64,000 nucleotides of DNA, taken from NCBI GenBank assembly GCA_010356995.1, contig ML996687.1, positions 497,803-561,802 of the forward strand. Direction: 5' to 3'. Shown one piece after another: positions 44,745 through 64,000 of this stretch (positions within the stretch are counted from its first letter, which is position 1; each line of letters opens with the position of its first letter). The DNA is from Trichodelitschia bisporula (Eukaryota). The notes beneath the pieces are model-generated. The model was not told the DNA's origin. It searched no databases and worked only from the letters and a program-made list of their open reading frames with translations. Made by a program: the position numbers and the translations under genes.

Positions 44745-45713
44745 ATGCCCACCCGTCACATTATACCCCCCCCCATCCTCGCATGCATCATCTTCGCCCA
44801 ACAGGTATTCGCCGCAACGCGCTATTCCAATAACTACTGGGCCGCCAGATGGCTCAACTCCACCGATCTCGAAGCCTGCCATTACCGCACCGCCCGGACC
44901 CCACCCCCTGGCCAGTGCTATGAGATGGCCAACTGCATCCTAGAATCCCTCTCCGAGTACGCCAAAGTGGGCCTTGCGTCCGGCACCTCGGTCCTCAGCC
45001 TCGTCCCCTCGGCCCTCGCACTGATACCCGCGCGCGGGAGCGGAGTCGAAGAAATCTTCGAGACCATGGGTGTGCTGTACTTTCTCCTTAGCATCTTCTC
45101 CGGGTACGTACGCATCGGCGACGCGAGCTCGCACTTGGCCAAAGAAATTGGAGCCGAGCCCAACGCCGCCGAGGCCCAGTTTGAAAGGGGAAGAGAAAAG
45201 TACAGGCTGGGGAAGCGGCACTACGCTTTTTGCGGCTTGACGGCGGCGCTGGCGGGGATTACGGTGTTCCTTGCGACGGAGCTCGGCGTCCAGACCGTAG
45301 TGACATGGGCGTGTAACCACGAGCTGCTTCACGTCGGGTGGCTGTTCTGCCGGATGCTGCCCGGGTTGGCAGAGTTTGCTCTTGTGCGGCTGGTGCGGCG
45401 CATGCTTCAAAATCGTCCATCTTGGTCTGTCGGTGGTGTTGGATCCCGCGGATGGATCCTCGCGAAGGGGGCGAATGGTCTGAGCTTGGCCCTGTATGGC
45501 TTGGTGGTGATTTACGGGACAGGTCTTTTCGGCTCGACAAATTTGATTGATGGGGGCGAGGTCATGTGGAAGTATATGGTCATGTTTCCGCTATTGTACT
45601 TTGTTATGCAGTCCATGTTAGCAGCGGGTACGGTATGGAGGATATCCGACTCTCGAGGGTGTAGGAACGCTTCCCCTGGAGCGGTAGCTCTATCTGTTCG
45701 ACCAACCAAATGA
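44745..45713 (+). CDS. Hypothetical multi-pass membrane protein with signal peptide
   Basis: 322-aa ORF with an N-terminal hydrophobic leader, a Cys-containing segment (ACHY..QCYEMANCILESL..ASGTSVLSLVPSAL) and several TM stretches. Confidence 0.7.
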   Translation: MPTRHIIPPPILACIIFAQQVFAATRYSNNYWAARWLNSTDLEACHYRTARTPPPGQCYEMANCILESLSEYAKVGLASGTSVLSLVPSALALIPARGSGVEEIFETMGVLYFLLSIFSGYVRIGDASSHLAKEIGAEPNAAEAQFERGREKYRLGKRHYAFCGLTAALAGITVFLATELGVQTVVTWACNHELLHVGWLFCRMLPGLAEFALVRLVRRMLQNRPSWSVGGVGSRGWILAKGANGLSLALYGLVVIYGTGLFGSTNLIDGGEVMWKYMVMFPLLYFVMQSMLAAGTVWRISDSRGCRNASPGAVALSVRPTK

Positions 45714-46825
45714 GAAAATCTGCGACTTTACACCAGTTACGGGACTCAAGATGCGGATAATCAGAAGGAGAGGTAACCTTCCTGTTAGAATTAGCGTACT
45801 CGAGTGCTTATACAGGAACATATTCTTGATAGAGGTCGTCTAGTCAGTGAACCGGCAAAGCTTACGTCGACATCCTTCACGATCGCGGCTCGACCGCCAC
45901 AATTCCAGGGTCATCATGACGTTCATTCGTCGGAAGCAGAAGAAGATATCAAAAAGGTTGGTTTGCGGACATTATCAATGCCCTGAGCCCTGGCAATTTG
46001 GTCCTGTTGCTCGAATCTGCCCGCGTATTCTTAGAAACTTGACGTTGAGCGCTTCTATTCCTGGCTTTCTCCGCGGCAATTCAGTGGGTTAGGTGTTGTC
46101 TTTCCTTGCGTCCACGAACACCCGCGCGTGGAAGCCTCGAGGTGCCAGTCCGCCTCAAGGTGCACGAGATCGGGGCTGCGCCATTGGCAGATCGGCCCGG
46201 GAAGCGTGTTGGTGGCGCAGCACCGAGAATAGTAATTCGGCCCGCGAACTCGGTATTGACGTATGCTCGACCACTCAAGTGCAGCGTCCCACGGTTGTGC
46301 CGCAAAGGAGCCTCCAATATTAGAATTAAGGATATGCAAGTTCGCTGCACAGACTTCCTGTCGCGGGGATCGGTGGTGACTTTCACCTCCCCTTGATTGG
46401 ACCGGGTGTACCCGTTGCACTTAGTGCGGAGTTCGTGACCGTGAGGTCAGGAACCGCACTCGCATATGTTCCACTCCACCATGAACTGACCTGGTGAGAG
46501 TCTTGTTGCGCATTCTGCCTTTGCGGGACTGTTGGTGGCAATTAGCAGCGGAAGGTGCCGCAGTGCCCGGGCCTTGGGACAGGTCTGCAGCTCGAGATGT
46601 TGGACCAGACCCGTGCATCATCCCACCATAGTGGATATATCTTTAGCTCTTCAAGGTGAGTATATAGACCGATGAAACACCAAGCGCCTCTTGGACAATC
46701 CGACCACAGTCACAACCATCATCATTGATCCTCAGCCTTCAGTCACCACCTCAGCCTCGCACTACAACGCCTCTGCGTGTGTCGTACATAACTGTTGCCG
46801 AATTTATACACTCTCCCACTCCGCA

Positions 46826-47422
46826 ATGGCAGCATCCACCCGCCTCATCTGCCTCAGCGCCTCGGATATCAAACACGTCGAGCATCAAGCCATGGCCGCC
46901 AAACTCCGTCGAAAACCCTCCCTCCACCTCATTACCAGCTTCCCCACACCTCCAACCTCATCACACCGGTACTCGCGCTTCCAGCTCTCACCTCTCCACT
47001 CGACCTTCCCCTCTCAACAACCCACCTCGCACTTCTCCTGGGACTCCGACTACGGGCATCCAGAACCTTCATCAGCAAGCCCCTCATCCGCTTGCAGCAG
47101 CGCCAGTACTTCCGAAGGGTCGATGCTAGACCGGTACATGCTCGAGCCGCCGCTGGTGGTCCCGGTTGCACGACGAGTACGCCAGCCTGTACTGGCCTCG
47201 CCGAGCCCGAGCCCCAGTCCTGTCGAACGACAGTGCGAGCTCGGCGTGCACTTTACCACCGAGGAGGTCCCGGTCGTGATGATGTGTCCGATGGTGAATA
47301 GAGGCCGGGTGGGGATGGGAGACTATCTTTCCAAAGTGCATTTAAGGCACCGGGGGGAATGTATAGAGGGATGGACGGCTGTGGGCGACGCTGGAGGGGG
47401 GGTTTATAGGCTTGGCGTTTAG
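46826..47422 (+). CDS. Ser/Pro-rich 'FxLSP' family member 1 (short form)
   Basis: ATG 46826 within ORF 46691-47422. Motifs RYSRFQLSPL and SMLDRYMLEPPLVVPVAR are shared with the next ORF. Confidence 0.6.
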   Translation: MAASTRLICLSASDIKHVEHQAMAAKLRRKPSLHLITSFPTPPTSSHRYSRFQLSPLHSTFPSQQPTSHFSWDSDYGHPEPSSASPSSACSSASTSEGSMLDRYMLEPPLVVPVARRVRQPVLASPSPSPSPVERQCELGVHFTTEEVPVVMMCPMVNRGRVGMGDYLSKVHLRHRGECIEGWTAVGDAGGGVYRLGV

Positions 47423-49052
47423 GTTGGGTCAGGAAGGAGCGATGGGCTTCTGGGTGCGATGACGATATACATCAGACCCTCCGGTTTGACTGCAGTTCGG
47501 GAGCACGGGCATTGTCGATGGGCGCCAGTTTCATTTGCTTGAAGTTGGGATGTCTGTACGCGTAGTAGTTGATATGAGGCGGCAAAGAGCCTAGGAGATC
47601 AGTCAGTCGTCCTATTACAGTAATGTCCCAAAGCATGACTTGAACTTGAACATGCGCGATGGTCTGACGTCATAGAGTATGTGTGCTCCAAAGAAGCTGT
47701 CAGATGTGAGACCCGAAGCATCGGACTTAAGATAGCAATAGGACGGCGATGGCAGAATCCCCCCAGCTCAGGAGTCAGGGGAATATGCGAGCCGTTGAAT
47801 GTCCACCGAAATGTGTGTGCGTAGATGTACCCAGCCAAAAGGTGACTGGGATAGAAGCTCAGCCGGGAGGGCCCAGCTGTCAACAGAGTAGAGAGCAACG
47901 GCCATGAAGGGCAGCCTCAATGAGGGAGTAGGTGCGAATCGAGAAGGTCTGCTTCGTTGACAACGAATCTTCCATGGCTCCACTTCTCTACCATGCGAGG
48001 CTTCCTGTCCTGAGATTATTAGTGGCTGATTTGACATTTCGGTGGGTCGATCTGGCGATGAAGCGATTGGTTGTTAGGCTTCCCCAACCTTCATCCAGCC
48101 TATCTCCATTGACCATGTGAGCATCAAGACGAATCCGTCACTTTTTCCATCGCTCGACTTTCAAAGGCAATTGGGCAGCATGGAGCCTGCAAATATTTGC
48201 CGTCAATTCAGTTACTTCCTTACCATTCGCCTGCCGTGCGGGGAAGATACACATAAAAATGCGCTAATTTAGTGCAATTGGCTCACAGCGGCTGGACTGC
48301 AGCCTCTTTCGCATCAGTCACCATCAACCGTCCTCAACCCCAACCTCAGCTTTCTTCCCCTCCTTACGGATGTGCACAGTACGGACGTACTCGCGCATAC
48401 TCCGTAGAAACCCGAGCAAAAGGTCAGCTCACTCTCACTCCCGAGAAGAACACAGAGCAGCTCCGGGCTATCCGGCTGTGTAAGTACTCTCTTCTCCCCC
48501 ATTCCCAACCTCCCCCCCCCCACACTTGCTGTCTAATATTATCCCAAGCTTGCCCGAAGGTGTGCCCTGCAGGTTTCCAGTGCCAAGGTCACACCTCATG
48601 CGCCCATCACGCCCACGCACCTGCTATCCACCCGGCCTCATTGGCGGCCATGTTGGCCGGGGTAGCGCAACGGAACGTTTCGTGCCCTGTGGCGGGGAGA
48701 GTGGCCGCGGGGGCATGACCGGGTAGCAAACTGCTCCAAACCCGGTTCGGGCCCATTTCGGAGAACAATGTGGTGATGCGAGAGTCAGTTGCAGGCGCCA
48801 TTTTTTCCCTGGCTACCGTAATCACTAAGGACTACGAGCAAACATGCGACCCGCATTGCGCTCGTTCCTGGCCCCCCCGACACCTCCTTCCCCCGCAAAA
48901 CCGCCGTTGGGTCCTCTCCGCCGGGTGATATTCTTACTTAACGACCCGCAGCCGCCCAGTCAACCCGCGCGCGACCCAAGCTCTTCGCCGCGACCCACAC
49001 CGGGTGTCCGTACCCACCGTCCCACCTCCTCTCCTCCGCACGGCCTATCCCG

Positions 49053-49766
49053 ATGCTTCCCCGGCGTCCGTCACCCCCGCCCTCCTACCGCCCCTCCTCC
49101 CATCCCTCTCGCACCTTAACCACCTCCCCACAGCCCGAGAGCGCATCACCCTCACCCTCCCCACCACCATCCTCAACCTCAACTCCCGCACCACGCGTCC
49201 CCCTCAACCTGAACGCATCCGAATTCATTCTCTTCCAAAAGGCAACCGCAGCAACCCGTCTCCGGCGCCCCTCCTCCCCCACCTCCCGGCCTGACACACC
49301 CGATCAAGCCCCGGCCCGCACGCAGTCGAGCCCAAAATATGGCCGCTTCGCGCTGAGCCCGCTGTTTCCGCCGCGCGATCTCGCCCTCCCGGTGCCGGCG
49401 CCGGCGCCGGCGCCTCGCCCACGGAAGAAGCGGGACGATTACATGCTGCGCCATTTCATGGCTGAGCCGCCGATTGCAGTGCCCGTCCCACGGGGGCCGG
49501 TGCCGGCACCGGGACTGGAGCTTGGCCGGCGAGCTTTGCCTACCGGCAGCGCCAGCGCCGACACCTCGCCTGTTGTTGAAGATACGAGCCCGGTGGGCGC
49601 GGGCGGGAAGGCTTGGTCGTATCATGGCGGAAATCCGCGGGGGGATGAGCGCGGGTACGATTTTAAGCCCTTCGTGGTTTACTCAAAGAGGAGGGGGGCG
49701 GAGGAGGAGAGGAGGGAGAGGAGGGGGCTGGACGGGAGTGAGAGGGGGGGATTCGAGCGGCGATGA
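49053..49766 (+). CDS. Ser/Pro-rich 'FxLSP' family member 2 (short form)
   Basis: Motifs KYGRFALSPL and YMLRHFMAEPPIAVPVPR; the 5' end is uncertain (a possible upstream exon could not be resolved). Confidence 0.6.
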   Translation: MLPRRPSPPPSYRPSSHPSRTLTTSPQPESASPSPSPPPSSTSTPAPRVPLNLNASEFILFQKATAATRLRRPSSPTSRPDTPDQAPARTQSSPKYGRFALSPLFPPRDLALPVPAPAPAPRPRKKRDDYMLRHFMAEPPIAVPVPRGPVPAPGLELGRRALPTGSASADTSPVVEDTSPVGAGGKAWSYHGGNPRGDERGYDFKPFVVYSKRRGAEEERRERRGLDGSERGGFERR

Positions 49767-51770
49767 CCATAGTAGAAGGGCAGAATTTTTGATGGGATGA
49801 AGGAAGGGCTGGTCAACCAAGCGGCCCTACGGTGATGAAGCGGCCTTGCGGCGACGGGACCTGTAAAAATGGTCTCTGGAGCACTTGCATCATGATGCCC
49901 TGCGGCGGGTAGTCGCGCAGTGGCCCGCATTACCCGCAACTGGCGTCTGTAATTTTGAGATATCCTGGATCCGAATGCGGTCCTTTAGCGGTAGATGAAA
50001 AGCAAATTAGCAGTCCTCATAACCGAAGCCAAATCTTGCAGTGATTGAAGTGCAGCCAAAAGGTGAAGCTGCAGGCGACTTTCCATGCCACGTGATGAAG
50101 TCTCGGGCGGTTCGGCAATCTCGCTTATCGTCGCTTATCGCGGCTCGATCCGCGTTACACGACGTTGGGTTCGAATTATTGGTACCACGGAAGTACCCCG
50201 CTTCATGGCACCGGCTGCATATGTCTGGTGCTCTCGCGGTCGCAAAAGCGGTCAGAATGCCTGTCCCGTCCTGCAGGCAAGGTACGCGCCTTTACAGCCG
50301 GGCATTGGCCAGCGCCATGCACTCGAAGCGCCCCTAAGTTGTTAGGCCCCCCCCGAACCTTGGAGGTCAACAGCCGGACTTGAGCGGGCGAGCATATGTA
50401 TCTTGGAAACGATAGATCCGTTTCCTACACTGTACCAATCCGCGCGACCACCCAGCCGCCGGGGAGCTTCCATCTTTCGCTGGGCAGGAGAAACATCACA
50501 AGTGCGGAGATGCCATGACAAGTGCGGAGAAATCGGGTTTCGGGCGATCCCACGATACTGTGGATTGATATCTCGTTTCAACACGCGGGAGAAGGCAACG
50601 AGAGCTTCTAGTCCGCCACGGCGAGGGGTCGGTGTGCAACTGTGTTACCTGAAGAAAAACGAAATCACCTCAAAACGGCGCAGTGCATCCTGGCCAATGG
50701 CCGCTAATTAGTCCCGTTTTCCTTGCTAATTAGTGGCGTCTCCATTGCTATCTGTGCGTTTGGCTCCCCACATGGAGCGCGACGCACTCACTTGCAGAAA
50801 ATAATGCCGCGGGTGAACTCACTTATCAACCATCGAAATGTCTGACTCCTAACGAAGAAGATCTACGCGAAGGATCCTCAGATGCTGCGTCAGGCTGGGC
50901 CATTGAGCCTCCACTTTAAAACCGGACACAGCGGAACTCAAAAGCTCACGGTTCGAGAGAACGTTTTCGTGGACATTCCTCGAGTCCAGGCGACTTGTGA
51001 GAAGTACATTTGCTCCTCAACCACTAACTCCGCTCCATCCTGGCGCAGCCCTTGACCTCATTACCGCTGGCCGAAAGGCAGACCATACCGTACTTTCTTA
51101 ACCGTACCAAACCAGGCCAGGCCGGAATCCCATCTTCTGGGATTCAGCAATCAGATGGAAACATCAGGTACGATACGTTGCAAATGGCTTCTGATGAACT
51201 TCGAGGTGCAAAGGGTCATTAGTACCTGGACTCCACACCCATGGAGCACCAGATGTTTTGTCCGCGAAGATATTATGATGGCTCTGATTGAAAGTCCACG
51301 ATGCTCAAGTATTGGCTAACGCACCAGCCATCGGCTGGGCAGCGGTTCTGTACGACCATGGGCCGTCCCGATCCAGTAACATCGGAGACCTTCCCGCCAG
51401 CTCGTCCCCCAAGATGGTCCGTCCCCTTTCACCCTGCGTCCATCAACCCGGCATCCCTGCCCCTCATCATCCACCGCGTGATGGCCGAATGCGGGGAGTG
51501 GTTCAGGGCGTTAGCACGGGCGGGTAAATTCGACTCCTTCAGGTGAAATTAGGAGAGTTCTAGCCACATCCAGGGGCGTTTGTGTCCCTTTTGCTAGCTG
51601 AGTACAGCCTTATCTAGTTATATGGCAGCCTTTCCAACTTCTACTTCAGCACCGCCTTCGTCCTTCCCCTAGATTGATGGTGGTTGTTCCGTTCCTGCTT
51701 GTTCGTCTTTCAGTATGATCCAGGTAGCAGCTATCCGTACCGGGTAGTCGATCTGCAAACACCAGCGACC

Positions 51771-54140
51771 ATGGCCAGCCCAACCGAAGCAGTCAGCCTG
51801 GTCTCTACCACGATTCCGGAAATTGACATCGCCCTCGCAAAGTCCCAGGCGTTCGCTTCGAAAGAGCGCCGTATGAAGCGGAACTCAGAACAGCGGCCGC
51901 TGTTCAACTGGCTAGGAGAGCGGTACAGCCAATTCGCACTCTCACCGCCGTCCCCCAAGGCCTTCACCTTTGCACACCACTGCTCCATCAGTGAAGCCTC
52001 AGTACCCAAGTCGTTGCTGGAACAGCACCTCGACAAGTCACCCCCACCCGCGTCCTCACACAGGCTGTCGACAGCCCTGGAAGGCAAGCCTGTCCGAATC
52101 GACGCCTCGAGGAAACAGATCAATGTCGAACCCGTAGTCAAGCCCGTGGTGAAGCCCGCCAGAATCAATGCCTTGAAGAAGCAAGCCACCGTCGAGGCCT
52201 CGCTCACCAGCCCCACCGTCACCAAGAACCTCTGGGCCTACCTCGCGGGCATCGGGTCCAAGGCTGAGCGTCCCGTGCCAGTCCTCGACCCAGCAAGGGT
52301 GACCTCTAGTCTGCCCACCGGTCCGAAGGATCCAGTTGCAAAACCTGTATCGGGTCCCCGGGCACCACACAAGCGCTCCGAGAGCGGTGCGGCCGTAAGG
52401 CCGGGCAGTGTGCATCGTTCCAGCGGGATCACCAGCAGCGTCTCAGCCTCACCGAACCCAACGGCTCCCACTAGGACACCCAGTCCCCCGACTGCCGGTC
52501 CAGCGCCTTCCTCCCACTCACTCACGCCGACAACCATCTCCCTGCCCATCGTCTCGGGTGGGCTTGTACACGGTACGAGCGGTGCGGAGCCCAGAAGCCA
52601 CTTTTCACCGATCAGCCCGGACAGCGCCGTGAGCGGCCCACCCGCAGTGCGAAGCTACTTCTCGCCCATCAGTCCGGACAGTTCGGCGAGCAGTTCACCC
52701 GCAGTACGGAGCTACTTCTCACCCATCAGTCCGGACAGCGCCACGGGCAGTACACCTTCGGTACATGCCGCGGTCAGGAGTCACTTCTCGCCTATCAGCC
52801 CCAACAGCGCTGTGAGTAGTCCACCCGCCACCAGGAGCCACTTCTCGCCCATCAGTTCGGACAGTACTGTGAGCAGTCAAAGGTCATCGGATGCCTCGCT
52901 TGTGTACACCACACCCCGGACCAGAAATCCAACGGAGCCGATTTCCCCGCCGCCCATGGCGCCGACTGCAGAGTCGTTCGGCCGTGAGTATATGCTGATG
53001 ACAATCAGCTTGTCACCATCGATCTACGATCCGCCGCCTGCTCCCACCCTCAGCGCGTTTCCTGTCGACCTCCCCGCTAGCCCGACCATTTCCCGTCCAT
53101 GCCCGATCGATACCTCACCGAACCCCCGCTCCCTCATCGCCGACTCGCCATACCCGGGCTTCGGCACCGCGACCTCCAGCACCGACTCTACATACGGATC
53201 CACCTCCTCCCTCGCCGGTCCCGACACCCCCGCCCCCCTAACAGCAAAGCGCATCGACTCACCCCCCGCGCCCACTCACAGCCACTTCCCCTCATCCCGC
53301 CCCGCCCCCCCCCTCCTCAAACGCAGCTCTGCCCTCTACCCCATCTCCCCCTTCCCCTCCCCGAGGTTGCCCGGCAGCCCAGCCCCCACCCCGCGCTTCG
53401 CCCGTTTCCCGGCGAACCGGGCGCTGCGCGCGCTGGACACGAGCGTCGGCGGACTGAGCAGCCGCATGTCGCCGAAGAGCATGGACGACGCGTATGAGGA
53501 TGAGGATGTGACGCCGACGGCGGAGCGGCCGCGCGGGGGGTTGCATAGTGCGCCGGCGAGTGCGGCGCCGGTTACGGCGGTTGAGCTTGGGGCGGGGATG
53601 GGGGGGCAGGAGGGTGTGGGGAGTGGGAGTGAGGGGGGGAGTACGCCGAGTAGTGAGCGGAGTGATACACCGTTTCCGATGACGCCGACGGCTGTGGCGT
53701 GGCCGTCGTTTGAGGATCGCGTGGCCAGTGGAGAGAAAAAGCTAAGGGAGGAGGAGGGGGATTTTCTTGTACCGGTTGAGAGGGGTGGGGCTGTGAGAGT
53801 GGGCGAGGGAAGTTCGGTGGAGGATTTGCTTGATTTGCACTTCAATGAAGAAGTGCGTGGTCGCGGGGAAGGGCAGCGTATATCGCGTGAGCTGCCGGAG
53901 CGGAGGAACAGGAGTGAGAGCCCATTGCGCTCGCCAACTGCCGGGTTGTATTCGGAGCTGCAGAAGAGGCCCGGCGCGACGATGACGGAGGAGTTGCTGA
54001 CGCCGGCGGTGTATGACCCGCACGCGGACAACATGTTTTCGTCGGTGATGCCGAGCAAAAAGTTTTATGCACTGCCGTCGGGGAGGCAGAACGACAAGAA
54101 CTTCATCTTGGGGGTGTATTTTAACCGGTCGTCAGGTTAG
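51771..54140 (+). CDS. Ser/Pro-rich 'FxLSP' family member 3 (long form)
   Basis: ATG 51771 in an 818-codon open frame. Motifs RYSQFALSPPSPKAF, PTVTKNLWAYL, LDTSVGGLSSRMSPKSMDDAYEDED, TPFPMTPTAVAWP and LTPAVYDP. Confidence 0.8.
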   Translation: MASPTEAVSLVSTTIPEIDIALAKSQAFASKERRMKRNSEQRPLFNWLGERYSQFALSPPSPKAFTFAHHCSISEASVPKSLLEQHLDKSPPPASSHRLSTALEGKPVRIDASRKQINVEPVVKPVVKPARINALKKQATVEASLTSPTVTKNLWAYLAGIGSKAERPVPVLDPARVTSSLPTGPKDPVAKPVSGPRAPHKRSESGAAVRPGSVHRSSGITSSVSASPNPTAPTRTPSPPTAGPAPSSHSLTPTTISLPIVSGGLVHGTSGAEPRSHFSPISPDSAVSGPPAVRSYFSPISPDSSASSSPAVRSYFSPISPDSATGSTPSVHAAVRSHFSPISPNSAVSSPPATRSHFSPISSDSTVSSQRSSDASLVYTTPRTRNPTEPISPPPMAPTAESFGREYMLMTISLSPSIYDPPPAPTLSAFPVDLPASPTISRPCPIDTSPNPRSLIADSPYPGFGTATSSTDSTYGSTSSLAGPDTPAPLTAKRIDSPPAPTHSHFPSSRPAPPLLKRSSALYPISPFPSPRLPGSPAPTPRFARFPANRALRALDTSVGGLSSRMSPKSMDDAYEDEDVTPTAERPRGGLHSAPASAAPVTAVELGAGMGGQEGVGSGSEGGSTPSSERSDTPFPMTPTAVAWPSFEDRVASGEKKLREEEGDFLVPVERGGAVRVGEGSSVEDLLDLHFNEEVRGRGEGQRISRELPERRNRSESPLRSPTAGLYSELQKRPGATMTEELLTPAVYDPHADNMFSSVMPSKKFYALPSGRQNDKNFILGVYFNRSSG
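52593..52880 (+). repeat. Five coding repeats, mostly 57 nt (RS[H/Y]FSPISPDSA)
   Basis: Units start at 52593, 52650, 52707, 52776 and 52833. Confidence 0.9.
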
Positions 54141-54189
54141 ACTTACGGCCTGGCGCCGCTGGCTGGACGTTGGTGCATCTGAGGGTTGG

Positions 54190-54330
54190 GATGCGGGTAA
54201 CCCGTCGTGAATGCCGGGTAACCACGTGTGGATGACGGGTAACCTGACGTGGGTGACGGGCGCCTAGCTGTCTAAGACGGGTAAAAGGGTATTCATGACG
54301 GGTAACGAGCGTGTCAGTTACGGGTAACTG
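54190..54330. repeat. Phased array of 7 CGGGTAAC-type motifs with 21-bp periodicity and variable spacers
   Basis: CGGG cores at 54194, 54215, 54236, 54257 (degenerate), 54278, 54299 and 54321. Confidence 0.88.
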
Positions 54331-54969
54331 GACGTCAACGGACTTGGGAATGAAACGGACATTCATCGATTCGCAAACATGGCATGGGAAATAGGTTGGA
54401 CGTTTACGCTGGGAATGGATCAGGGCGGACATCTGGAAATTTGCGGTCTCAGACATCGTGTCTTTCTCTTTTGGGCAAGCATTGGCGCTTGGGTGGTTAC
54501 CGTCCTTTTGATTAGTTAGCTAATGACGAACGGCTGGAAGACGAGCGATACTGACTGGTCCAAGAACTACGGATCAACGAAAGAAACGCCCTTTTATAAT
54601 GCAGTGAAACATCTAAAGCATACTGAAACAGCTGCTCTGGAGCGTGCCAATTGTTGCAGTCGGCTGATGTTGGTTGCCGGTGATTGGAGGTCGTTGGACG
54701 AAGAATTGTGGCGGATCACGGAGTTCTGACGCTCCTAACTACCCGACATGGAATGTCAAGCACCAGACAGTCCAATGCTGCGCTGAAATACACCAGAAGA
54801 GGCGTGGAAGTACCGAGCATCGGAATCGCTCCGGAACGATAACCATCAATATTCAAGTCTTCATATACTGACTATGCTAACATTACGCTGATATAAGCAA
54901 TCCACCCACCATGGGCACGTATATCTCTATGCATTCCATCTCCACACAACGCCAAACCCAACCCCCCAA

Positions 54970-56262
54970 CTAAGCCCCCATCCCAACCCCAAACACCTCC
55001 CTCTCCTTCCCCGCACCCCCCCCACCCTTCTCCCCCAAATCCACACTCCCTAACCCCCTAACAACCCACCCCGGCACCCCCTCCCCCTCCTCCACCCCCA
55101 CCCCCACCACCCCTCGCGGCCACGCCATCGCCACAGGCGTCATCGGACTAAATGGATACGGACTCTCCGTCGAACCCGCCGTCGCCGGACTCTCCATAAC
55201 CCGCACATCCGCCCGCGCCGCAAACCGTACCCGCGCCCGACTCGCATTCCTCTCCCTCTCATCCACCACCCGCCTATCATCCCCCCATCTCGCCCTCGCC
55301 CCCTCCTCCTCCTCACTCTCCCCACCTCGCGATCTAGACCGACTCCCAAGCCGCGGCGTCGGCCGCGCAGCCGTAGGTGTAGGATCATCGTCCTCCTCCG
55401 CCCGTCCCCGGCTGCTGCTCCGCAGCGCCCGCAGCCGCGCCGCACCCACACTCGTGTCCAGCGCGCCGAGTGCGTGCGTGCCGCGCGGCGCGGGGACGGG
55501 GACGGTGTGCGCGCGTTGTGGCGGGGGGCGCGCGGTGAGCGGGATTGCCGTCTGCGGACCGTCTGGCACGTCGCGGCTTTGAAGGGAGGAAAGTGGCGCA
55601 GGGCGGGATTTAGGCGGTGAAGACAGAGCGGAGGAGAGGGAGGAGAGGGTCGAGGTTGCAGAAGCGCGGCGCGCGGGGCTGGGCGTGCGCGAGCGCGCGG
55701 AGTGTAAGGAGGAGCGGCTGGAGGAGCGGGAGCTTGCGGCGCTGGGTGTGCGGGACGATATGCGTGTGCGCGAGCGCGGGGGCGGAGTGGGGAGAGCGGA
55801 GGCGAGGGAGGAGAAAGTTGTGCTGGTGGTGCTCGGCGATGCGGCGGCAGAGCGGCTCGAGAAGCTCCCGAGCGCGCGCAGGATCGGGCTCGTCGCAGGA
55901 TCGATCGGCCCGTCGCGCTCGGCCCAGCGACTCGTCCACCCCAGATCGCGAGCGCTTGTCGGTGTGGCGGCCGCGCTCGGTGACGGCGCGATGGGGAGGT
56001 CGGCGAGGAAGGCGTCGAGCATGACGGGTTTGCGCCCCGCGGTGGGCGTGGGTGGAACGTCTGCTGAGGTTGAGGGTTGCGGGCGGAGGGAGAGGACTTT
56101 GGGACTGAGGGGTGAGATGGCGAAGTGCGTGTATTTGCGGTCGCGATCTGGGAAGTCGCTGGCGATGGTGCGCTCGATGCTGGGCGGGAGGTGGGTGCGG
56201 CGGTCGCGGAGGGAGGATGAGCCTGGTGGGGTAGAGGCGGAGGGGGTGGTTGGGCTGGGCAT
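54970..56262 (-). CDS. Ser/Pro/Arg-rich 'FxLSP' family member 4 (intermediate form, inverted)
   Basis: 430-aa ORF with RKYTHFAISPLSPK, VMLDAFLADLP, LGALDTSVG, EEDDDPTPTAARP and PFSPMTPVAMAWP. Confidence 0.78.
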   Translation of the reverse strand: MPSPTTPSASTPPGSSSLRDRRTHLPPSIERTIASDFPDRDRKYTHFAISPLSPKVLSLRPQPSTSADVPPTPTAGRKPVMLDAFLADLPIAPSPSAAATPTSARDLGWTSRWAERDGPIDPATSPILRALGSFSSRSAAASPSTTSTTFSSLASALPTPPPRSRTRISSRTPSAASSRSSSRSSLHSARSRTPSPARRASATSTLSSLSSALSSPPKSRPAPLSSLQSRDVPDGPQTAIPLTARPPPQRAHTVPVPAPRGTHALGALDTSVGAARLRALRSSSRGRAEEDDDPTPTAARPTPRLGSRSRSRGGESEEEEGARARWGDDRRVVDERERNASRARVRFAARADVRVMESPATAGSTESPYPFSPMTPVAMAWPRGVVGVGVEEGEGVPGWVVRGLGSVDLGEKGGGGAGKEREVFGVGMGA

Positions 56263-57848
56263 GATAAACGGAAGATCGCAAGGATGCTGACGGCCGATCT
56301 GCGCGCCGGTTCAGGATGCGACGGCAGAATGGCACTGTCGACGACGGAGACAAGACGGGACGGGATGACGGGGGATCTAGGGCGAAGATATGCAAAGGGA
56401 AGGCTAAAGGAGGTGCTTTGGAGGGGAAGGGGGGCCGCGAGATGGGCCGCAGGTTAAAAGGATGCTCATCCGCAGTGTGCGAGTGCACAGCACAAGCGCA
56501 TGCCCCGTGTGGGAGATCAGACGTTGCAGGCTAATGCACGAGGGGGCAGCTGCCCGTATGGCTGCCCGGCTACGGTGCGAGGTTCTAAGCCACAGACCGC
56601 GGCGGTCGCCCGGCTGTGTGATGCCTGACCAGGGCGGGAGGGGGGGTTTCCGAGTGAAAGGGCGGGGGCTGGGCCGGGAGACTGATGGCGGAATATTAGC
56701 TTCAGTGCGATGCATTCGGGGGCGTATTCTGAGGGCCAATATCGATACAGGATGTGTTAATGAGACGGAAGGGGAAGTATTAGCTTCAGCCCCGGACACC
56801 TGGGGGGTGGATGGAGAGCCAATACAGGCTCATTTTGCCTGCAAGTCGGGGCAACTTGGCCCCTTCCTAATGCGGTGAAGTTGGTAGTATTTTGCTAGCC
56901 GGGGCGCGTAAATTCGGCCACTGACAGGAGGCATGTTCAGGCTGGGGGAAGGGCACGGGTCGAGGCAGTACGGTAGAGTTTTGATCGGCGAGGCGCAGGA
57001 GGGCGGAGACGGGATGGAGAGGGGAAGGCGATGGAGAGCACTCAAAGGATTGAGGCATTTGGGACATAAAAAGTAAAGAAGTAAAGAAGTAAATACTGTT
57101 AAGAGGAAGTTCCATTCCTTGCAGTTGATGATCCTTTGATGCAAGAAATGTTGGATAATTAGCAAGAGAATGAAGGAGGACCACTGTCTTCTGTTACACA
57201 AGATCCGTCGTACCCAGTGGAGAGGTGAGGGGAAACACGGCCGAGAAAGCGGCCGACTCCTTCGCTCTCTAAGCGCCGTGGTTGTGCGCTACGTCCGAAT
57301 CAGACGTGGGGAACCAACACAACATTCTCCAATTGGCCAGAAAGGCCCTGGGCTGCGATTCTTCAGCCTCGCGATTGGCCCCACCCCCCGCACCCCCCAG
57401 ACAACGCCATGTCGAACTGCCATGTCCTCCCCTGTACAACACCACACTACACGTGAAGCCTCTTCACGCTGCATGAAGGAAGCGGGGGACCCAGGCGGGA
57501 GAGCCCTAGGAAATACGGACCTGTAGCAATCGACTGAGGCGTTCGGGTCAACAGTGATCAACCCATCCGAGGGAGGGGGTATAAGTTTCTTGGGGGGCCT
57601 TGCAGCGAGCACCGCAGCACACATTTCCGCCAGCAGTTTCCCGTCTGCGTTGCTCCCCCCCGTCAGTATTTCATTTGCCTCGCTGTCGGGTTTCCTTTTC
57701 TGTTCCTCTTTTCTCTCGTGCTTTGTCATTTGGTTGCTGTTGTCGTCTTCGTTGCTGTCTTCATTGTCGGTGTCGCCTTCATCGTTCGCATCTGCATCTG
57801 TGGAGCATAATCACTCCTTAATACGCCTAATCGCTCACCACACTCACC

Positions 57849-60800
57849 ATGTCCTCCAACACCACCAACCCACGGGACGTTCTCCCAGCACCCAAACCCG
57901 AGCTCACCCTCGCAATCGCCAAATCCCAATCCGAAGCCCAAGCCAGCAAAGACCGCCGAGCAAGCAAAATCTTCGCCCGGACCGAGAAACCCCTCCTATC
58001 CCGCCTCGGAGACCGTCTAGACCGAAAATACAATCAATTCGCCCTCTCCCCCCTCTCCCCAAAAGCCTTCGGACCCTCACTCCACCAATCTACAACCCGC
58101 GGTCCCTCAGCGCCCATGCAACGCTTCCTCGACCCAGGCCGCACGCCCGCCGCCTCCGCCGCACCTAACCAGCCTCAACTCGTCGTCCGTGCCGTCGCAG
58201 ACGCTCAGTCCCTCGACAACCAACCGCCCAGCCCGACGGTGAGCAAGAACCTCTGGGCCTACCTCAGCGCAATGGGGAAAGAGCAGCGCAGCGTCCCGGG
58301 GCCGGGTCTACCCGCGCACCCCAAAGCTCCGGGCCCGCGGCCCACCAAACGCTCCCCGCTCGCGTACCGCACGGCCTCAGCCTCCGGGCAGACCAGTCCC
58401 GCGGCCAGCACGCACAGCCTCGCGTCCGCGGCATCTGGGCGGACAGAGCGCTCGACCCGGAGCCGCAGGGAAAAGGCCCCCGTCCAGCCGGCCGAGGCGC
58501 CGCGTATCCAGCCCACGTATGAGAAGATCGAAGCGCCGCTGTCGAAGCCGACAGGCATGTATCCGCCCCCGGCACCTGCTCGGATGGAAACTAGCCAAGC
58601 TTCGGCGGCCCCCAGCGCTTCGGTGGCCCCCAGCGCTTCGGCCCGATCGTCAGGATCTTCGGGTGCGACCCGCAGCTCAGGGTCCTCAGGAACGAGCCGC
58701 GCCGTCGTGGTAGGCTTGCCAGGCTCGAACCCCGCACCGGTCCGCTCCCCTGGCGCATCATCCGTCCGATCCTCAGGGTCAGGCGCCATGCGGTCGCCGG
58801 GCGCGTCAAGCGTGCGCTCGAGCAGCAGCCGCGCGAAGGAGACGACGCGCACGACAATCCCACCTCCGGCGCCGACGCACGACTCCTTCACGGCCGATCT
58901 CCCGAACATGAGTATCAGCATGAAGCCCTCGGTGTTCGATCCGCCACCCGCGCCGACCCGCGACGCTTTCGCCGCCAAACCGGTTCCCCCGCAAAGCCCA
59001 CCGCTGGCTATGCGCTCGCCGTTCGATCCGCCGCCTGCGCCTACGCGCGATGCTTTCCCGGCTAAAGGAGCGGCGGCGCCGCAGAGCCCGCCGCTAGCTA
59101 TGCGCTCGCCGTTTGATCCGCCGCCTGCGCCGACACGGGATGCTTTCCCCGTCAAAGCTAGTGCCCCGCAAAGCCCACCGCCGGCGATGCGCTCGCCGTT
59201 CGATCCCCCGCCAGCACCCCTGCGGTCCGAATTCCCAGTCGATCTCCCGAACAGCCCGCCACTCACCAAACCCTCACATTTCGACCCACCCCCCGCACCG
59301 ATGCTGTCCCAGTTCCCTGTCGACCTCCCAGCAAGCCCAACCGTCGCGCGGCCCTACCCCATCGACATCGTGGCATCAAACGGCCCGCAGCAGCAGCGCT
59401 CTCCCGCCATCGCCGACTCGCCCTACCCGGGTCTCGGCAACTTGACCCCGTATCCAATGTCCCCGTTCCCGGAACCGCCCGCCGCCCCGACGATAGGGCA
59501 CTTCGTCGAGGTGCGCCCATCCGCGACGCTCACGCTCGCAAACATGCCCGCCAGCCCACCGGCCGATATCCCCGACCCGCCCTCCGCGCCGATGAAGAGC
59601 CGCTTCCCCGAAAGCAGGCCCGTCATGAGCGTGACGGTGTCGAACCCAGGTTCGCCCGCACTGGTCCCGAACAGTCCGCCCCCAGCGCCAGTAAAATCGC
59701 GTTTCGCGGAAAGCAAGCCGACGGTGGCACCTCTCTCTCCACCGCCGCCACCCGCAGCCGCCCCAACCGGTTTATCGCGTTTTGCTCCCCCGCCCGCACC
59801 CGTAAAGGGGCGCTTCGCCGAAAGCAAACCCGCCGTCGCACCCCTCTCCCCACCAGTCCGGGCAGCCACCTCGCCCGTCCCCGCACCACTCCCCGCACCT
59901 ACACGGCCGAGCTTCGCAGCGCCCACGCGTCTCAGCTTCGAGTCACGCGGGCGCCGCCTGCTCGGCCCGCTGGACACGAGCGTCGGTGGTCTGAACTCGC
60001 GGATGAGCCCGCGCAGTATGGACGACGCATACGAAGACGAGGATCCAACGCCTACGGCCGCAAAGCCACGCGGGCGGGGTTACGGGCTGCACAGCGCACC
60101 AGCAAGCGCAGCGCCAGTAACCGCAATCAACGCGCCCATCATCGAGCGGGAGGAGCGGTCGCCCCTAGCCGAGGCCGCGACGCAGTCCCACGCTAACCAG
60201 TCCCAAGCGACCACGCCCAAGGGCGTCGTATTCACGGGACGTGACGAGGTGCACAGCCCGCTCAGCGGGCCGAGCAGCGGCCCATCCAGCCTAGGCAGCC
60301 CGAGCAGCGAGCGGAGCGACACGCCGTTTCCGTTTTCGCCAATTACGCCCGTGGCAATGGCGTGGCCTGCCTATGGCGACGCCGTGAGCTCGAGCGAGGC
60401 GGCGCGGCGGCGGGCAGAAGCGGCGGCGGCGGAGGAGGAGGGGGATGAGGATGATTTCATTGTGCCGATGGATACGAATATGATGCTTAGCATCAAGGGG
60501 GCGGCGGCGGTTAACAGTGCCAAGGCCGATCCGTTGCCGCTACACATGTTTAGGGGCGAGGAGTTCCGTGGGCGGGACGCGAGTGTGGCGAGCCAGCATA
60601 GGCGGAATCGGAGTGCGAGTCCGATGCGCCCGTCGAGTCGGGGGTTGATGAAGAGGCATGGGACGGATGCGGAGATGCTGACTGCGGCGGTGTATGATCC
60701 GAATGCGCCGAAGACGCGGGGGTTCCGTGCCATCTCGTCGAAGAAGTATAGCGACAAGGGCTTGATTCTCAAGACGTACTTTGATCGCTGCTCGACGTAG
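57849..60800 (+). CDS. Ser/Pro-rich 'FxLSP' family member 5 (long form)
   Basis: 983-aa ORF with RKYNQFALSPLSPKAF, PTVSKNLWAYL, LDTSVGGLNSRMSPRSMDDAYEDED, PFSPITPVAMAWP, LTAAVYDP and LILKTYFDR; collinear with 51771-54140. Confidence 0.82.
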   Translation: MSSNTTNPRDVLPAPKPELTLAIAKSQSEAQASKDRRASKIFARTEKPLLSRLGDRLDRKYNQFALSPLSPKAFGPSLHQSTTRGPSAPMQRFLDPGRTPAASAAPNQPQLVVRAVADAQSLDNQPPSPTVSKNLWAYLSAMGKEQRSVPGPGLPAHPKAPGPRPTKRSPLAYRTASASGQTSPAASTHSLASAASGRTERSTRSRREKAPVQPAEAPRIQPTYEKIEAPLSKPTGMYPPPAPARMETSQASAAPSASVAPSASARSSGSSGATRSSGSSGTSRAVVVGLPGSNPAPVRSPGASSVRSSGSGAMRSPGASSVRSSSSRAKETTRTTIPPPAPTHDSFTADLPNMSISMKPSVFDPPPAPTRDAFAAKPVPPQSPPLAMRSPFDPPPAPTRDAFPAKGAAAPQSPPLAMRSPFDPPPAPTRDAFPVKASAPQSPPPAMRSPFDPPPAPLRSEFPVDLPNSPPLTKPSHFDPPPAPMLSQFPVDLPASPTVARPYPIDIVASNGPQQQRSPAIADSPYPGLGNLTPYPMSPFPEPPAAPTIGHFVEVRPSATLTLANMPASPPADIPDPPSAPMKSRFPESRPVMSVTVSNPGSPALVPNSPPPAPVKSRFAESKPTVAPLSPPPPPAAAPTGLSRFAPPPAPVKGRFAESKPAVAPLSPPVRAATSPVPAPLPAPTRPSFAAPTRLSFESRGRRLLGPLDTSVGGLNSRMSPRSMDDAYEDEDPTPTAAKPRGRGYGLHSAPASAAPVTAINAPIIEREERSPLAEAATQSHANQSQATTPKGVVFTGRDEVHSPLSGPSSGPSSLGSPSSERSDTPFPFSPITPVAMAWPAYGDAVSSSEAARRRAEAAAAEEEGDEDDFIVPMDTNMMLSIKGAAAVNSAKADPLPLHMFRGEEFRGRDASVASQHRRNRSASPMRPSSRGLMKRHGTDAEMLTAAVYDPNAPKTRGFRAISSKKYSDKGLILKTYFDRCST
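58860..59860 (+). repeat. Coding repeats: ~87-90-nt units (PQSPPLAMRSPFDPPPAPTRDAF) followed by three APxKxRFxES(K/R)P units
   Basis: Seen directly in the translation of ORF 57849-60800. Confidence 0.88.
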
Positions 60801-61370
60801 GTTGCATGGCATTGTCCAGCGCGGGTGGAGAGACTGTTTGCACTTCAGCTCGGATTTGGCGTTTTGGTTTGGATTCAATACATACTGATTACGCTCCGGT
60901 TGCGCATGGAAGGCGGACCTCGCATCTCAATCTCGAACATCTGGATGACAGATGGAATGTAGAAGAGCCTGCTCATCGCGAGCCTTTTTTGTTGAACCTT
61001 CGGGCAAGCATAGCGCAGGAGCTGCCGCTGCCTGTACATTTTCCCGCTGGTCAGTAGTCTCGGACTCCAGCGTGGCGCAATTGAAATAGCATTGTACAAT
61101 GATCGATGATGGTCCCACCGTAGCTCTTCTGCCGTGTTGATGTCTTGCTCGTTGATTAGCCAAGGGCTGGAGCTCAATGACTGAATTGGATAAACGTTCT
61201 CGTCCTGCTCTGCGGGCACAACGTCAAGCCAGGTGCCCGATGGGAGGGTAAGTACGCAAATAGCCAGCCAAAAGACAAAATCACCAATGTGCCATTGCTC
61301 ATAACTCTAAAACGTGTGACGGAGCGTGACCAACCCCCCAACAGCTATCCCAAAAACGAAGGCCATAGTG

Positions 61371-63112
61371 CTATGTCTCCGACTCCATTACGTTTTCCGG
61401 TATGTTGCGCAACTGGTAAAGCATCATAAACGCCATCGTCCCCGGATATATCGAGACCGAATCGATGACCTTGACGCCGAGCTCCTTCTTTCTCCCAATG
61501 AGCATCATCCCAAGATCCTCGGAGAAGTCACTCCCAAGTAGAGTAAAGAATTCAGTGTCCTCGACGGTGTATCGTACCCATCCGCCCGCCCAGATGTGGG
61601 AGGCGTCGAGATTCTGAGCGCTCATTTGCGCCCATCGACAGACGGCCTTCGAGGTCTCATCCCGGTAGCCGACCTTGTACAGCACGTATTCTAGCCCCTT
61701 AGGATCCGCGTTGTATGCCGCGGTCACTTCCATCCAATGGAAAAATGCAAAATCTCTCCAGTCGCTGAGCGCTGGCATGTCCGAGTCAGGGTCCAGGAAT
61801 TCAATCGGGACGTAATTGGCCACTATAATCATGCCCACGTGAGGGCAGTGGTGGTTGATAAAGTACGCCTCCGTTGGCTATCGCCGTGAGCTTCGCATCT
61901 TAATATGGACAGCATACTTACCTCCTCGAGTTTGCCCCACTCCCCGCCGATTTGCTCCCACGGAATGTAGTGAATGGCTACTCGCGCTTCCTCGGTCGTA
62001 TCCAAGCCCTCTAAACGCAGTGCTTTCAGGATGGGGGCAACAGTCGGCGACTTGAGAAGAGGCGCATGAGAAATTGGCTCCTCGGTCTCGATGAGAAGAG
62101 CATACAAGGGGTTGTCCGTCCACCCATAGGCGTGCAAAAGCGCGCTGTCGAGTTTGGGGAATGGTACTGCTATATCCTCTTTTACATAGTCCGAGGCTTC
62201 CTGTGTGGTTCGTCGGTTCATCGCTTCATATGCCTTCCTTCCTCTGGATGCCAATTCTTCCAAGCCTTCGCTATTGGCGACAAGGGTACGACGGCGGGCG
62301 GTAAACTGACGTGGTGGAATATCTTCATGCGATCCGTCCAACGGCGGAGCCTTCGAACGATGGCCTCTCTCAGGGGACCCAGGGATCTCATATATCACAG
62401 GGATGTCGTTGAAGGAAACCTTGCGTCGGCGGGGCTCCAAATCATCGGGGTTCAGAGCCAGCGGGTCTTCAGTGTAACTTGGGTCCGAACTTGGTTTGAC
62501 GGCGGGCTTGGGGACGAGTAGGTGAGAGAGTACAGTGGCCGCGATTTCATCTACATATGTTACTCCATCGTCATCGGCTCGCGTCGCAGGCCGAGTCGAC
62601 CGAGATGCAGATCTGGCCAAAGGGGCACCGAAATCAATCATTTCCGGTGGAGAGGCCGCGATGTCCTCTACATATGTGACTCCGTCATCATCGTGTTGCT
62701 TCGCAGGCCGGGCAGGCCGGGATGCAGTTCTCGCCAAAGGAAAGCCGAAGCCAGCCGTGTCCTGTACAGAGGCCGCGGTGTCCTCTACATATGTGACTCC
62801 GTCATCGCCGTCTTGCTTCGCAGGCCGGGCAGACTGGGGTGCAGATCTCGCCATAGGATGGCCGAAGTCAATCACTTTCGAAAGCGGAGACTTTGATAGC
62901 TCTCGCTCGGCGTCTTCATCAAGATTGAGAGACGTCGGGTCTTCAGTGGAACCTGGATTCGAGCTTGGTTCGACGGCGGGCCCAGTTTCGACCGGGTGAG
63001 AGAGTGGAGGGGCCGCGATGTCCTCCATGGCGAATATTGTTCCATATTCATCGTCTTGCTCCGCTGGCCGAGATGTATGGGATATCAAAAAAGGGTGGAC
63101 GGGGTCAATCAT
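61371..63112 (-). CDS. Hypothetical fungal protein with N-terminal repeats (paralogue of 16590-17993), 2 exons
   Basis: 44-nt intron 61878-61921 (GTAAGT..TAG) joins ORFs 61829-63112 and 61371-61838. C-terminal domain GMIIVANYVP..LSDWRDFAFFHW..LEYV..TLLGSDF..GMMLIGRKKELGVKVI. Confidence 0.72.
62545..63070 (-). repeat. Three ~120-nt coding repeats plus one diverged copy (FG.P.AR.A.RPA.QDDDDGVTYVEDIAA)
   Basis: TCTACATATGT(G/T)ACTCC(G/A)TC occurs three times on +. A second duplicated segment, PAVEPSSNPGSTEDP / PAVKPSSDPSYTEDP, is also present. Confidence 0.88.
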
Positions 63113-63462
63113 GCTGGGAAGCGGATGTACTGGCTAAGATAGATGGTCAAAGAAATACGGTGTACGAAGTTGGGTAAAAGCGGATGTCTGGGTAGATGTG
63201 GAGTTGAGAGGATTGCAAGCTCGCGAGGACATGTAGATCTGGCAGTGCCATCTCTGCGATGGCAGGTGTGCCAGGCAACGGGCGGTCTTTCCATGAAGGG
63301 CGGCTGTGGAGGGACGGATTGCGCCTGGAGAGAAGTTGAGGTACTTGGAGCGGAAATGGCGATGGAATCAGAATGTGGTCGCTAAACGGCAGGCTCCCCC
63401 ACGCCCGACAGGCTGCTCTACGGACCGGCCTACCGCTGATGTCGTCCATCCCATCCAAAATT

Positions 63463-63549
63463 GGTCGGTTAGCTCAGTTGGTTAGAGCGTGGTGCTAATA
63501 TGTATGTCATGTAACGCCAAGGTCGCGGGTTCGACCCCCGTACTGACCA
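63463..63549 (+). tRNA. tRNA-Ile (anticodon AAT) with a 13-nt intron
   Basis: Acceptor stem GGTCGGT/ACTGACC, D-arm GCTCAGTTGGTTAGAGC, anticodon stem TGGTG/CGCCA with loop CT-AAT-A, intron 63501-63513 after position 37, T-arm GCGGG-TTCGACC-CCCGT, and a T-run Pol III terminator at ~63559. Confidence 0.95.
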
Positions 63550-64000
63550 TCACCAGTCTTTTTGCTGCTGCTGCCATTTGAGGTACGCCGCTTTTTGCCC
63601 GCTGTCGACATCTGGCGTGGACAGAGTGTTGGCGATAGTCCCTTCCCCCATGCGGTACATGGCGGGCGGAACGCGGATGACGGCCATGGTCGTTCCGATC
63701 GACGGAGACTAGCTTCATCGTTCCGTTTGCATGAAGATTTGCAGCACATACTGTGTGACAGATTAGCATATACACAGTCCCCTTTGTTCGTGGAGCATCT
63801 TCGTGATGCAGTGAGTATCTTGCCGAGCACCAAATGGTAGTTGTAACGCGGTGACCCAACGATCGATATCATCAGGATCAAGACAATGTTTTAGCACAAG
63901 CTGTTCAAAGCATCACGGTATAATGAGCTCGGCTCAGTGGCGACAGAGTCGAGCAAGGCAGTACAGTAGTATGCACCGGTAAAGTGTGGAGAAGGAACAG

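Follow-up and report, generated by a model that had tools for sequence, protein, structure and literature searches.

Five neighbouring genes of an undescribed, lineage-restricted family of short-motif proteins in Trichodelitschia bisporula

A stretch of 64,000 nucleotides (nt) from Trichodelitschia bisporula (assembly GCA_010356995.1, contig ML996687.1, positions 497,803 to 561,802 of the forward strand), hereafter termed the window, carries between 46.8 and 60.8 kb five open reading frames (ORFs) that encode members of one protein family. Member 1 (P0001; 46826..47422, plus strand) and member 2 (P0002; 49053..49766, plus strand) are short forms of 198 and 237 amino acids (aa), respectively. 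Member 3 (P0003; 51771..54140, plus strand) is a long form of 789 aa, member 4 (P0004; 54970..56262, minus strand) a middle form of 430 aa and member 5 (P0005; 57849..60800, plus strand) the fullest form, with 983 aa. A sequence-only reading of this DNA had described the five as a local cluster of intronless, disordered paralogues linked by short conserved motifs. The ORFs lie at the positions and on the strands that it gave, and their translations match. All of its motifs were found: (R/K)YxxFx(L/I)SP, termed motif 1, and a hydrophobic patch in each of the five proteins, EPP(L/I)xVPVxR in the short pair, LDTSVG, an acidic run with TPTA and P(M/I)TPxAxAWP in the three longer members, and the additional motifs of members 3 and 5. 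That observation is thus confirmed and its interpretation is partly supported. The locus holds five neighbouring copies of an undescribed, lineage-restricted family built on a skeleton of short motifs, the function of which we infer from sequence.

By their motif content, the five members carry graded subsets of a single skeleton. Member 1 comprises the N-terminal module (N-module) only, with a basic patch, RYSRFQLSP at 46970-46993 and MLDRYMLEPPLVVPV, and member 2 displays KYGRFALSP at 49338-49361 plus MLRHFMAEPPIAVPV; the extension EPP(L/I)xVPVxR is common to both. Member 3 contains the N-module with motif 1 at 51924-51947, KNLWAYL, repeats of the type PPPAP...F...PIDT, LDTSVG at 53433-53450, the acidic-TPTA element, PMTPTAVAWP and a C-terminal module (C-module) at 53844-54137. 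It lacks the K-x-V-R-F slot described below, in the place of which stands a G-rich tract (~53590-53640). Member 4 comprises the N-module (motif 1 at 56133-56110), LDTSVG (55461-55444), acidic-TPTA, RVRF (55233-55222) and PMTPVAMAWP, followed by a Gly-rich tail in place of the C-module. All blocks are present in member 5, which displays the N-module (motif 1 at 58029-58052), KNLWAYL, many PPPAP...F repeats that include a three-copy tandem of 87-90 nt at 58925-59218, LDTSVG (59970-59987), acidic-TPTA, KGVVF (60219-60233), PITPVAMAWP and the C-module (60555-60797). Member 3 also contains approximately five copies of a 19-aa unit of the SxFSPISPDS type (R-S-H/Y-F-S-P-I-S-P-D-S...), encoded by a DNA repeat at 52583-52877. 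The aromatic residue and SPxSP core of this unit recall motif 1, and it is matched by a profile of the N-module with an E-value of only ~190.

The five ORFs are real, uninterrupted genes. Their G+C content at third codon positions (GC3) is 0.66-0.76, with 0.66 and 0.71 in members 1 and 2, compared with 0.59-0.79 in four control genes of the window, and all relatives for which DNA is in hand are encoded by single uninterrupted ORFs. Two public sequencing runs, both from one sample, cover the stretch. Their contigs were aligned to positions 45000-62000, and uncovered stretches between genes were not counted as evidence. Member 1 is covered by a contig at 46719-47946 without a joint, member 2 by contigs in which 48338-48479 is joined to 48549-49078 and by a contig at 48549-50013, member 3 by contigs at 51325-53580 and 53650-54571, the break between which falls on the G-rich tract, and member 4 by a contig at 55143-56562, while the contigs at 57649-61877 and 57719-61864 each extend over the whole of member 5 without a joint. 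As far as the contigs reach, no joint lies inside any ORF, which bears out the claim of intronless coding parts. Introns with GT..AG ends were identified in the leaders of member 2 (48480-48548) and member 3 (51165-51324/51339), the latter with two alternative acceptors 15 nt apart. Since spliced joints of this kind are what complementary DNA shows, the five ORFs are probably transcribed. Against transcription it counts that the kind of the two runs is unrecorded and that their being RNA is a guess.

Public annotation of the cluster is uneven. Members 1 and 2 are present as exact sequences in NCBI/UniRef. Full-length members 3, 4 and 5 are absent from the protein collection, so that no independent annotation stands behind the models of these three, a point that also tells against the present gene structures. 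The sole part of member 3 in the collection is P0006 (53679-54140), which corresponds to its last 153 aa. This model begins just past the G-rich tract, and the public model of member 3 is suspected to have been cut short there.

The likeness between the members exceeds what composition would give. When the 64 kb are translated in six frames, the pattern [FY]xxFx[LIM]SP occurs five times, once in each member and nowhere else. None of 5000 composition-matched shuffles displayed motif 1 in all five proteins, and none displayed the hydrophobic patch in four of five or any one of the three motifs of the longer members in all three, figures that are descriptive rather than formal tests, as the patterns were written after the data had been seen. 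Comparison by BLASTP and Smith-Waterman alignment revealed significant similarity within the long group and within the short pair. BLASTP gave E-values of 1e-43 and 1e-16 for members 3 and 5, 2e-13 and 2e-5 for members 4 and 5, 3e-5 for members 3 and 4, 9e-6 for members 1 and 2, and 3e-4 for members 2 and 4. The corresponding Smith-Waterman z-scores (200 shuffles) were 34.7 (3/5), 9.4 (4/5), 7.2 (3/4) and 8.1 (1/2), and z-scores between short and long members were only 1.2-3.1. To the eye, the C-terminal half of member 1 resembles that of member 4, but BLASTP does not support this (E-value 0.56). Because of these low cross-group scores and the failure of the 1/4 comparison, the short and long members are taken to be linked by the N-module only.

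The link through the N-module has independent support from a profile built without any window sequence. A hidden Markov model (HMM) of the N-module, built from 23 foreign rows and run on the 986 window ORFs of at least 40 aa, placed the five members as the top five. E-values were 1.3e-4 for member 5, 1.5e-4 for each of members 1 and 4, 1.4e-3 for the fourth-best member and 8.4e-3 for member 2, the next window ORF scoring 0.29. An HMM of the full family without window rows matched member 1 with an E-value of 1.2e-6. The C-module HMM matched members 5 (1.1e-7) and 3 (2e-7) and gave no match for members 4, 1 and 2. Alignment of the foreign-only family alignment (A5) with member 1 by hhalign gave a probability of 71% and an E-value of 3.6e-5 over 50 columns. 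The same comparison was weak for member 2 (probability 3%, E-value 0.015, over 15 columns of motif 1), the family place of which thus depends on motif 1, the hydrophobic patch and the similarity to member 1. Taken across the profile and pairwise matches, all five ORFs belong to one family.

The family has relatives outside the window. A profile of members 5 and 3, scored exhaustively against 1.84 billion representative proteins, returned eight matches at E<=0.001. One is P0006, a 153-aa fragment from the window itself, and the others are seven relatives of 375-783 aa. These seven are distant (E-values of 1e-7 to 9e-4), yet display the same motifs in the same order. Two further profile searches, each limited to the 8000 candidates with the highest number of shared words, gave 24 and 11 matches, and 29 distinct relatives (P0007-P0035) were identified altogether. 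Three are named, from Venturia effusa, Venturia inaequalis and Tothia fuscella, all as "hypothetical protein", and the remainder derive from metagenomes and assemblies of public runs. With 29 outside relatives that keep one motif order, including the Venturia and Tothia proteins, the proposal of an old family holds. When the C-terminal third of member 5 served as a single query, nothing was returned among 8000 candidates of 540-1721 aa, which indicates that the family is missed by a word prefilter unless a profile is used.

The proteins had been described as having no recognisable domain, which holds, since no Pfam family matched any of the five at E<=1. In seven relatives Pfam likewise gave no domain, the only row being a sub-threshold UNC119_bdg match (E-value 0.083). 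The family profile had no match in the PDB at E<=10, three motif strings did not occur in the literature searched, and literature searches on Venturia disordered gene families and on disordered tandem paralogues retrieved nothing relevant among the papers listed. Within the Pfam, PDB and literature searches made, the family is therefore undescribed, as had been proposed.

As aligned in 28 rows (25 relatives and members 3-5), the family consists of a fixed order of short conserved blocks between Ser/Pro-rich stretches of very variable length, and the blocks are collinear across all rows. The N-terminus displays a basic patch, S/T-K-E-R-R-x-x-L-P, followed by Y-x-R-F-x-L-S-P (24 of 28 rows), P-L-R-T-x-L-L-E-R-Y-L (26 of 28) and T-L-A-x-A-G-I-S-D-A-L-P-T-P. 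Two blocks, S-P-P-E-T-N-S-D-C-F-S-P-V-L-G-T-G-P-A-E and R-R-N-S-F-P, are restricted to a subset of the rows; the latter is present in 14 of 28, with no window row among these. There follow one to nine repeats of S-P-F-D-P-P-P-A-P-T-x-x-x-F-P-x-x-F-P-A-S-P-x-R-S-K-P-A-P-I-D-T-S and then, in order, K-x-V-R-F-A, S-P-x-T-P-V-A-M, R-G-R and R-x-R-S-x-S-P. The C-terminal blocks are L-P-x-T-V-Y-D-P (25 of 28 rows) and, near the C-terminus, S-D-K-x-I-L-x-x-Y-F. In one alignment the LDTSVG of the window members aligns with the P-A-P-I-D-T-S unit of P0010, and it looks like a copy of that unit.

Ser, Pro, Thr, Ala and Gly together account for 43-57% of the members, whereas four folded control proteins of the window reach 38-41%, a difference that supports the proposed disorder. 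Two points weigh on the other side, namely that composition is the whole basis of the assignment and that a simple charge-hydropathy index is ambiguous (negative 51-aa windows make up 37-65% of the members and 0-26% of the controls). No signal peptide or membrane span was detected on a crude hydropathy scale rather than with a dedicated predictor. The best 19-aa mean hydropathy was at most 1.01 in the first 30 residues and at most 1.09 anywhere, compared with 3.01 in a transporter control. The members are thus predicted to be soluble and not secreted.

A maximum-likelihood tree was calculated from 24 rows, leaving out P0012, P0013, P0020 and P0024 (fragmentary), P0032-35 and the short members. 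It groups members 3 and 5 together (Shimodaira-Hasegawa-like approximate likelihood ratio test, SH-aLRT, 98) with member 4 as their sister (94), and places the three away from two metagenome clades and from a group formed by Venturia and Tothia. The position of member 4 is less sure, owing to its long branch and unusual composition. As the three longer members form one clade, the cluster is read as a local expansion, in agreement with the earlier suggestion, and this clade points to lineage-specific tandem duplication. Motif-coding islands display 73-89% nucleotide identity between members, and internal tandem repeats of recent origin are present in member 3 (period of 57 nt) and member 5 (87-90 nt).

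Close pairing of paralogues recurs outside this lineage. In three metagenome contigs, L001 (1797-9717), L002 (4185-12097) and L006, which belong to another, unrelated lineage, two paralogues lie on opposite strands ~3.3 kb apart, and in L002 a GST-N-like ORF (7370-7909, minus strand) lies between them. Nine metagenome loci with genes of relatives contained no short form nearby, and the window shares no synteny with the metagenome loci beyond the family itself, the flanking genes being unrelated.

It had been proposed that the motifs are under selection while the linkers drift. The first part is supported in that the blocks are the better conserved parts. When the 25 foreign rows are used to delimit blocks, identity between members 3 and 5 is 47% in blocks and 39% outside, and in the 4/5 and 3/4 pairs it is 36% in blocks and 24% outside; in the 3/5 comparison, columns with a residue in one member only number 33 inside blocks and 293 outside. 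The ratio of nonsynonymous to synonymous substitution rates (dN/dS) was calculated for five pairs of relatives, for which the blocks were taken from rows that lie outside the clades under comparison. It is lower in blocks than in linkers in three pairs (0.19 vs 0.47, 0.22 vs 0.33 and 0.22 vs 0.32) and equal in two (0.54 vs 0.57 and 0.16 vs 0.17). The second part holds only to some degree, since linker dN/dS values of 0.17-0.57 mean that the linkers are constrained too. Linkers are looser and rich in insertions and deletions, and they are not neutral.

The block most suggestive of function is the K-x-V-R-F-A slot, at which 25 of 26 aligned rows fit the pattern [KR]x0-1[VIL]{P}[FW] of the RVxF motif that docks protein phosphatase 1 (PP1). 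For a random stretch of 20 aa with equal composition, the probability of a fit is 0.025. Within the cluster, member 4 (RVRF) and member 5 (KGVVF) fit at this slot. According to a review, most fungal regulatory subunits of Glc7 (among them Bni4, Afr1, Scd5, Gac1, Reg1 and Bud14) bind through RVxF, and Bni4, Afr1 and Scd5 are septin- and endocytosis-linked users of the motif (PMC6506691). Like Bni4, Afr1, Scd5, Bud14 and Gac1, the long forms are long and apparently domain-free with K/R-x-V-x-F at one place, which in this family is surrounded by proline-rich repeats and many S/T-P sites. They differ from these subunits in that there is no Pfam match and that one long and both short members lack the motif, and they are likened to them by description only.

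On this basis the long forms might be multivalent adaptors of PP1 type, cytoplasmic or nuclear, in which the K-x-V-R-F motif would dock the Glc7-type phosphatase while the proline-rich repeats and the terminal modules would bind targets or localisation partners. Phosphorylation at S/T-P and at the basic R-x-R-S-x-S-P sites could tune adaptor binding, and the short forms could compete for whatever binds the N-module. A PP1-adaptor role for the long forms is the reading preferred here, though it is rather less likely than not. The explanation as a whole, which joins a tandem family of motif-skeleton genes to such a role, is held tentatively and put somewhat short of an even chance. The phospho-regulated scaffold or adaptor role put forward in the sequence-only reading is likewise conjectural. 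The S/T-P content is above composition in members 3 and 4, the observed number being reached in 0 and 5 of 1000 shuffles, respectively, and is not so in member 5 (315 of 1000). Several findings speak against the PP1 reading. The RVxF pattern is short, and in its bare form it is not enriched, as it is present in two of the five members and is matched by 1492 of 5000 shuffles; members 1, 2 and 3 lack the K-x-V-R-F motif altogether. The slot also keeps more than RVxF needs, with R and A nearly fixed, and may thus serve another partner. Secondary PP1 motifs (SILK, MyPhoNE and phi-phi) were not noticed, although no search was aimed at them. Among the other ORFs of the window there is no PP1 sequence.

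Alternatives were considered both for the nature of the genes and for what they do. Long antisense ORFs overlap the family genes and the G+C content of the cluster stretch is 56-69%, so that chance frames in GC-rich DNA, with motifs shared by compositional coincidence, deserve a mention. For members 3-5 this is refuted by the shuffle tests, the matches to foreign profiles, the 29 relatives, the relatives' dN/dS below 1 and the contigs lying on the ORFs, and for members 1 and 2 the BLASTP match between them, their exact NCBI/UniRef entries, the N-module HMM and the hhalign result of member 1 argue for genes; what is left of the idea is practically negligible. A stronger case can be made that members 1 and 2, and perhaps 4, are decaying, truncated duplicates that do nothing by themselves, so that the working genes would be members 3 and 5 alone. 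The two short members match the family in the N-module only, the C-module HMM finds members 5 and 3 alone, the member 1 versus 4 comparison is not significant, the hhalign probability of member 2 is very low, and relatives' genes in the nine metagenome loci are not accompanied by a short form. Both short ORFs are nevertheless intact, publicly annotated exactly as read here and covered by contigs; they keep motif 1, the hydrophobic patch and their common extension, and their GC3 resembles that of the control genes. Decay is accordingly judged unlikely by a clear measure.

Concerning function, a signalling hub of the type of Saccharomyces cerevisiae Fir1 would provide kinase, 14-3-3 or cell-cycle docking together with phosphorylation sites and no PP1, the V-R-F block binding something else. 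Fir1, a cytokinesis checkpoint protein, is described as a disordered, rapidly evolving chain with no folded domain and many conserved short motifs, of which [F/Y]xFP, the docking motif for Cbk1, is the defining one (PMC6314563). The present family resembles it in these general features, and Fir1 is its closest analogue in functional terms. A language-model look-up placed P0009 nearest to a cluster automatically named "Factor interacting with REF2" (score 0.84, the best in either of two look-ups), a lead only, as shuffled proteins reach atlas scores below 0.9 a third of the time. The S/T-P enrichment of members 3 and 4 counts in the same direction. RxxSxP is the mode-1 site pattern of 14-3-3 proteins, and the R-R-N-S-F-P block fits it in 14 of 28 rows; members 3-5 lack this block, however, as does the Venturia group. 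HxRRx[ST] is the consensus of Cbk1 phosphorylation sites. Unlike Fir1, the family displays this consensus and the [F/Y]xFP motif in only one of 28 rows each, at unaligned places of P0008, and in none of the three window rows. A Fir1-type hub is judged unlikely. Other Ascomycete disordered regulators, TCO89 (PF10452) and Etd1 (PF20162), are low-ranking atlas look-alikes (0.76-0.83), to which the family is similar in kind, but no Pfam match at E<=1 was obtained in the five members or in the seven relatives scanned. A bulk material role, in which the proteins would form condensates or plugs rather than specific motif-partner pairs, would suit the low-complexity, Ser/Pro-rich composition, the variation of the PPPAP/PAPIDT units from 1 to 9 among relatives and the recent internal tandem duplications. 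The strict collinearity of about a dozen short blocks across distant relatives has instead the look of partner binding and is not needed for bulk properties, which makes this role highly improbable. More ambitious than the adaptor role preferred here is the proposal that the family is a new, motif-only class of phosphatase-targeting (or similar) adaptor, and the cluster a working set rather than debris, in which paralogues with graded motif complements have one N-terminal docking module in common and the short forms titrate its partner and thereby tune the long forms. It is regarded as quite improbable; were it true, the recurring opposite-strand pairs would mean that selection keeps such sets together.

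Families of this kind are mostly overlooked by routine annotation: Pfam has no model for the present one, all three relatives with a name are "hypothetical", and the public record of this genome misses two of the three long genes and holds the third as a 153-aa stump. The cluster, in which five adjacent copies of a single motif skeleton differ in the motifs that they carry, forms a natural series and lends itself to studies of what individual short motifs do in a disordered protein and of how such proteins are duplicated and lose modules. Should the V-R-F block dock PP1, the family would constitute a lineage-restricted targeting subunit in a group of fungi to which the scab pathogens belong; otherwise, the block would point to a docking interaction of another kind. 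As long as no partner has been identified, the practical importance is modest.

The intergenic regions of the cluster contain repeats of their own. Right after the stop codon of member 3, between the convergent members 3 and 4, five copies of CGGGTAAC lie within 135 nt (54194-54328), which is five of the six occurrences in the window, where 1.29 are expected by chance. The reverse complement of this element resembles TTACCCG, a site of the Reb1 type, and sites of this type can serve as transcription roadblocks. The region between the divergent members 4 and 5 (56263..57848) contains three copies of a 28-nt element, at 56678-56705, 56762-56789 and 57166-57193, with 68-82% identity among them. 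Upstream of the five genes, four 8-mers are shared, compared with a control mean of 2.4 (standard deviation 6.1), and thus there is no promoter signal; an 11-mer suspected to be common has just two occurrences. An Rfam scan of 45000-62000 gave no match.

The other ORFs of the window are ordinary fungal genes, which include alcohol and short-chain dehydrogenases, ribosomal S10, Sde2, an SPX-CitMHS transporter, a WD40 protein and a GH47 mannosidase. Adjoining the cluster, an 877-aa ORF at 41070-43703 (minus strand), without a Pfam match and without motif 1, is of low complexity, with His/Gly/Ala-rich repeats, a Gly-Trp run and a long Lys/Glu/Arg-rich stretch. On the other side, at 61371-63112 (minus strand), two ORFs are joined via a 44-nt intron (joint 61877>61922, CT..AC on the plus strand), and the product, which has no Pfam match, displays three copies of a ~35-aa repeat containing DDDGVTYVEDIAA. 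At 63462-63551 (plus strand) ARAGORN calls a 90-nt tRNA-His with the unusual anticodon ATG, which may be an intron-containing tRNA that was given the wrong anticodon.

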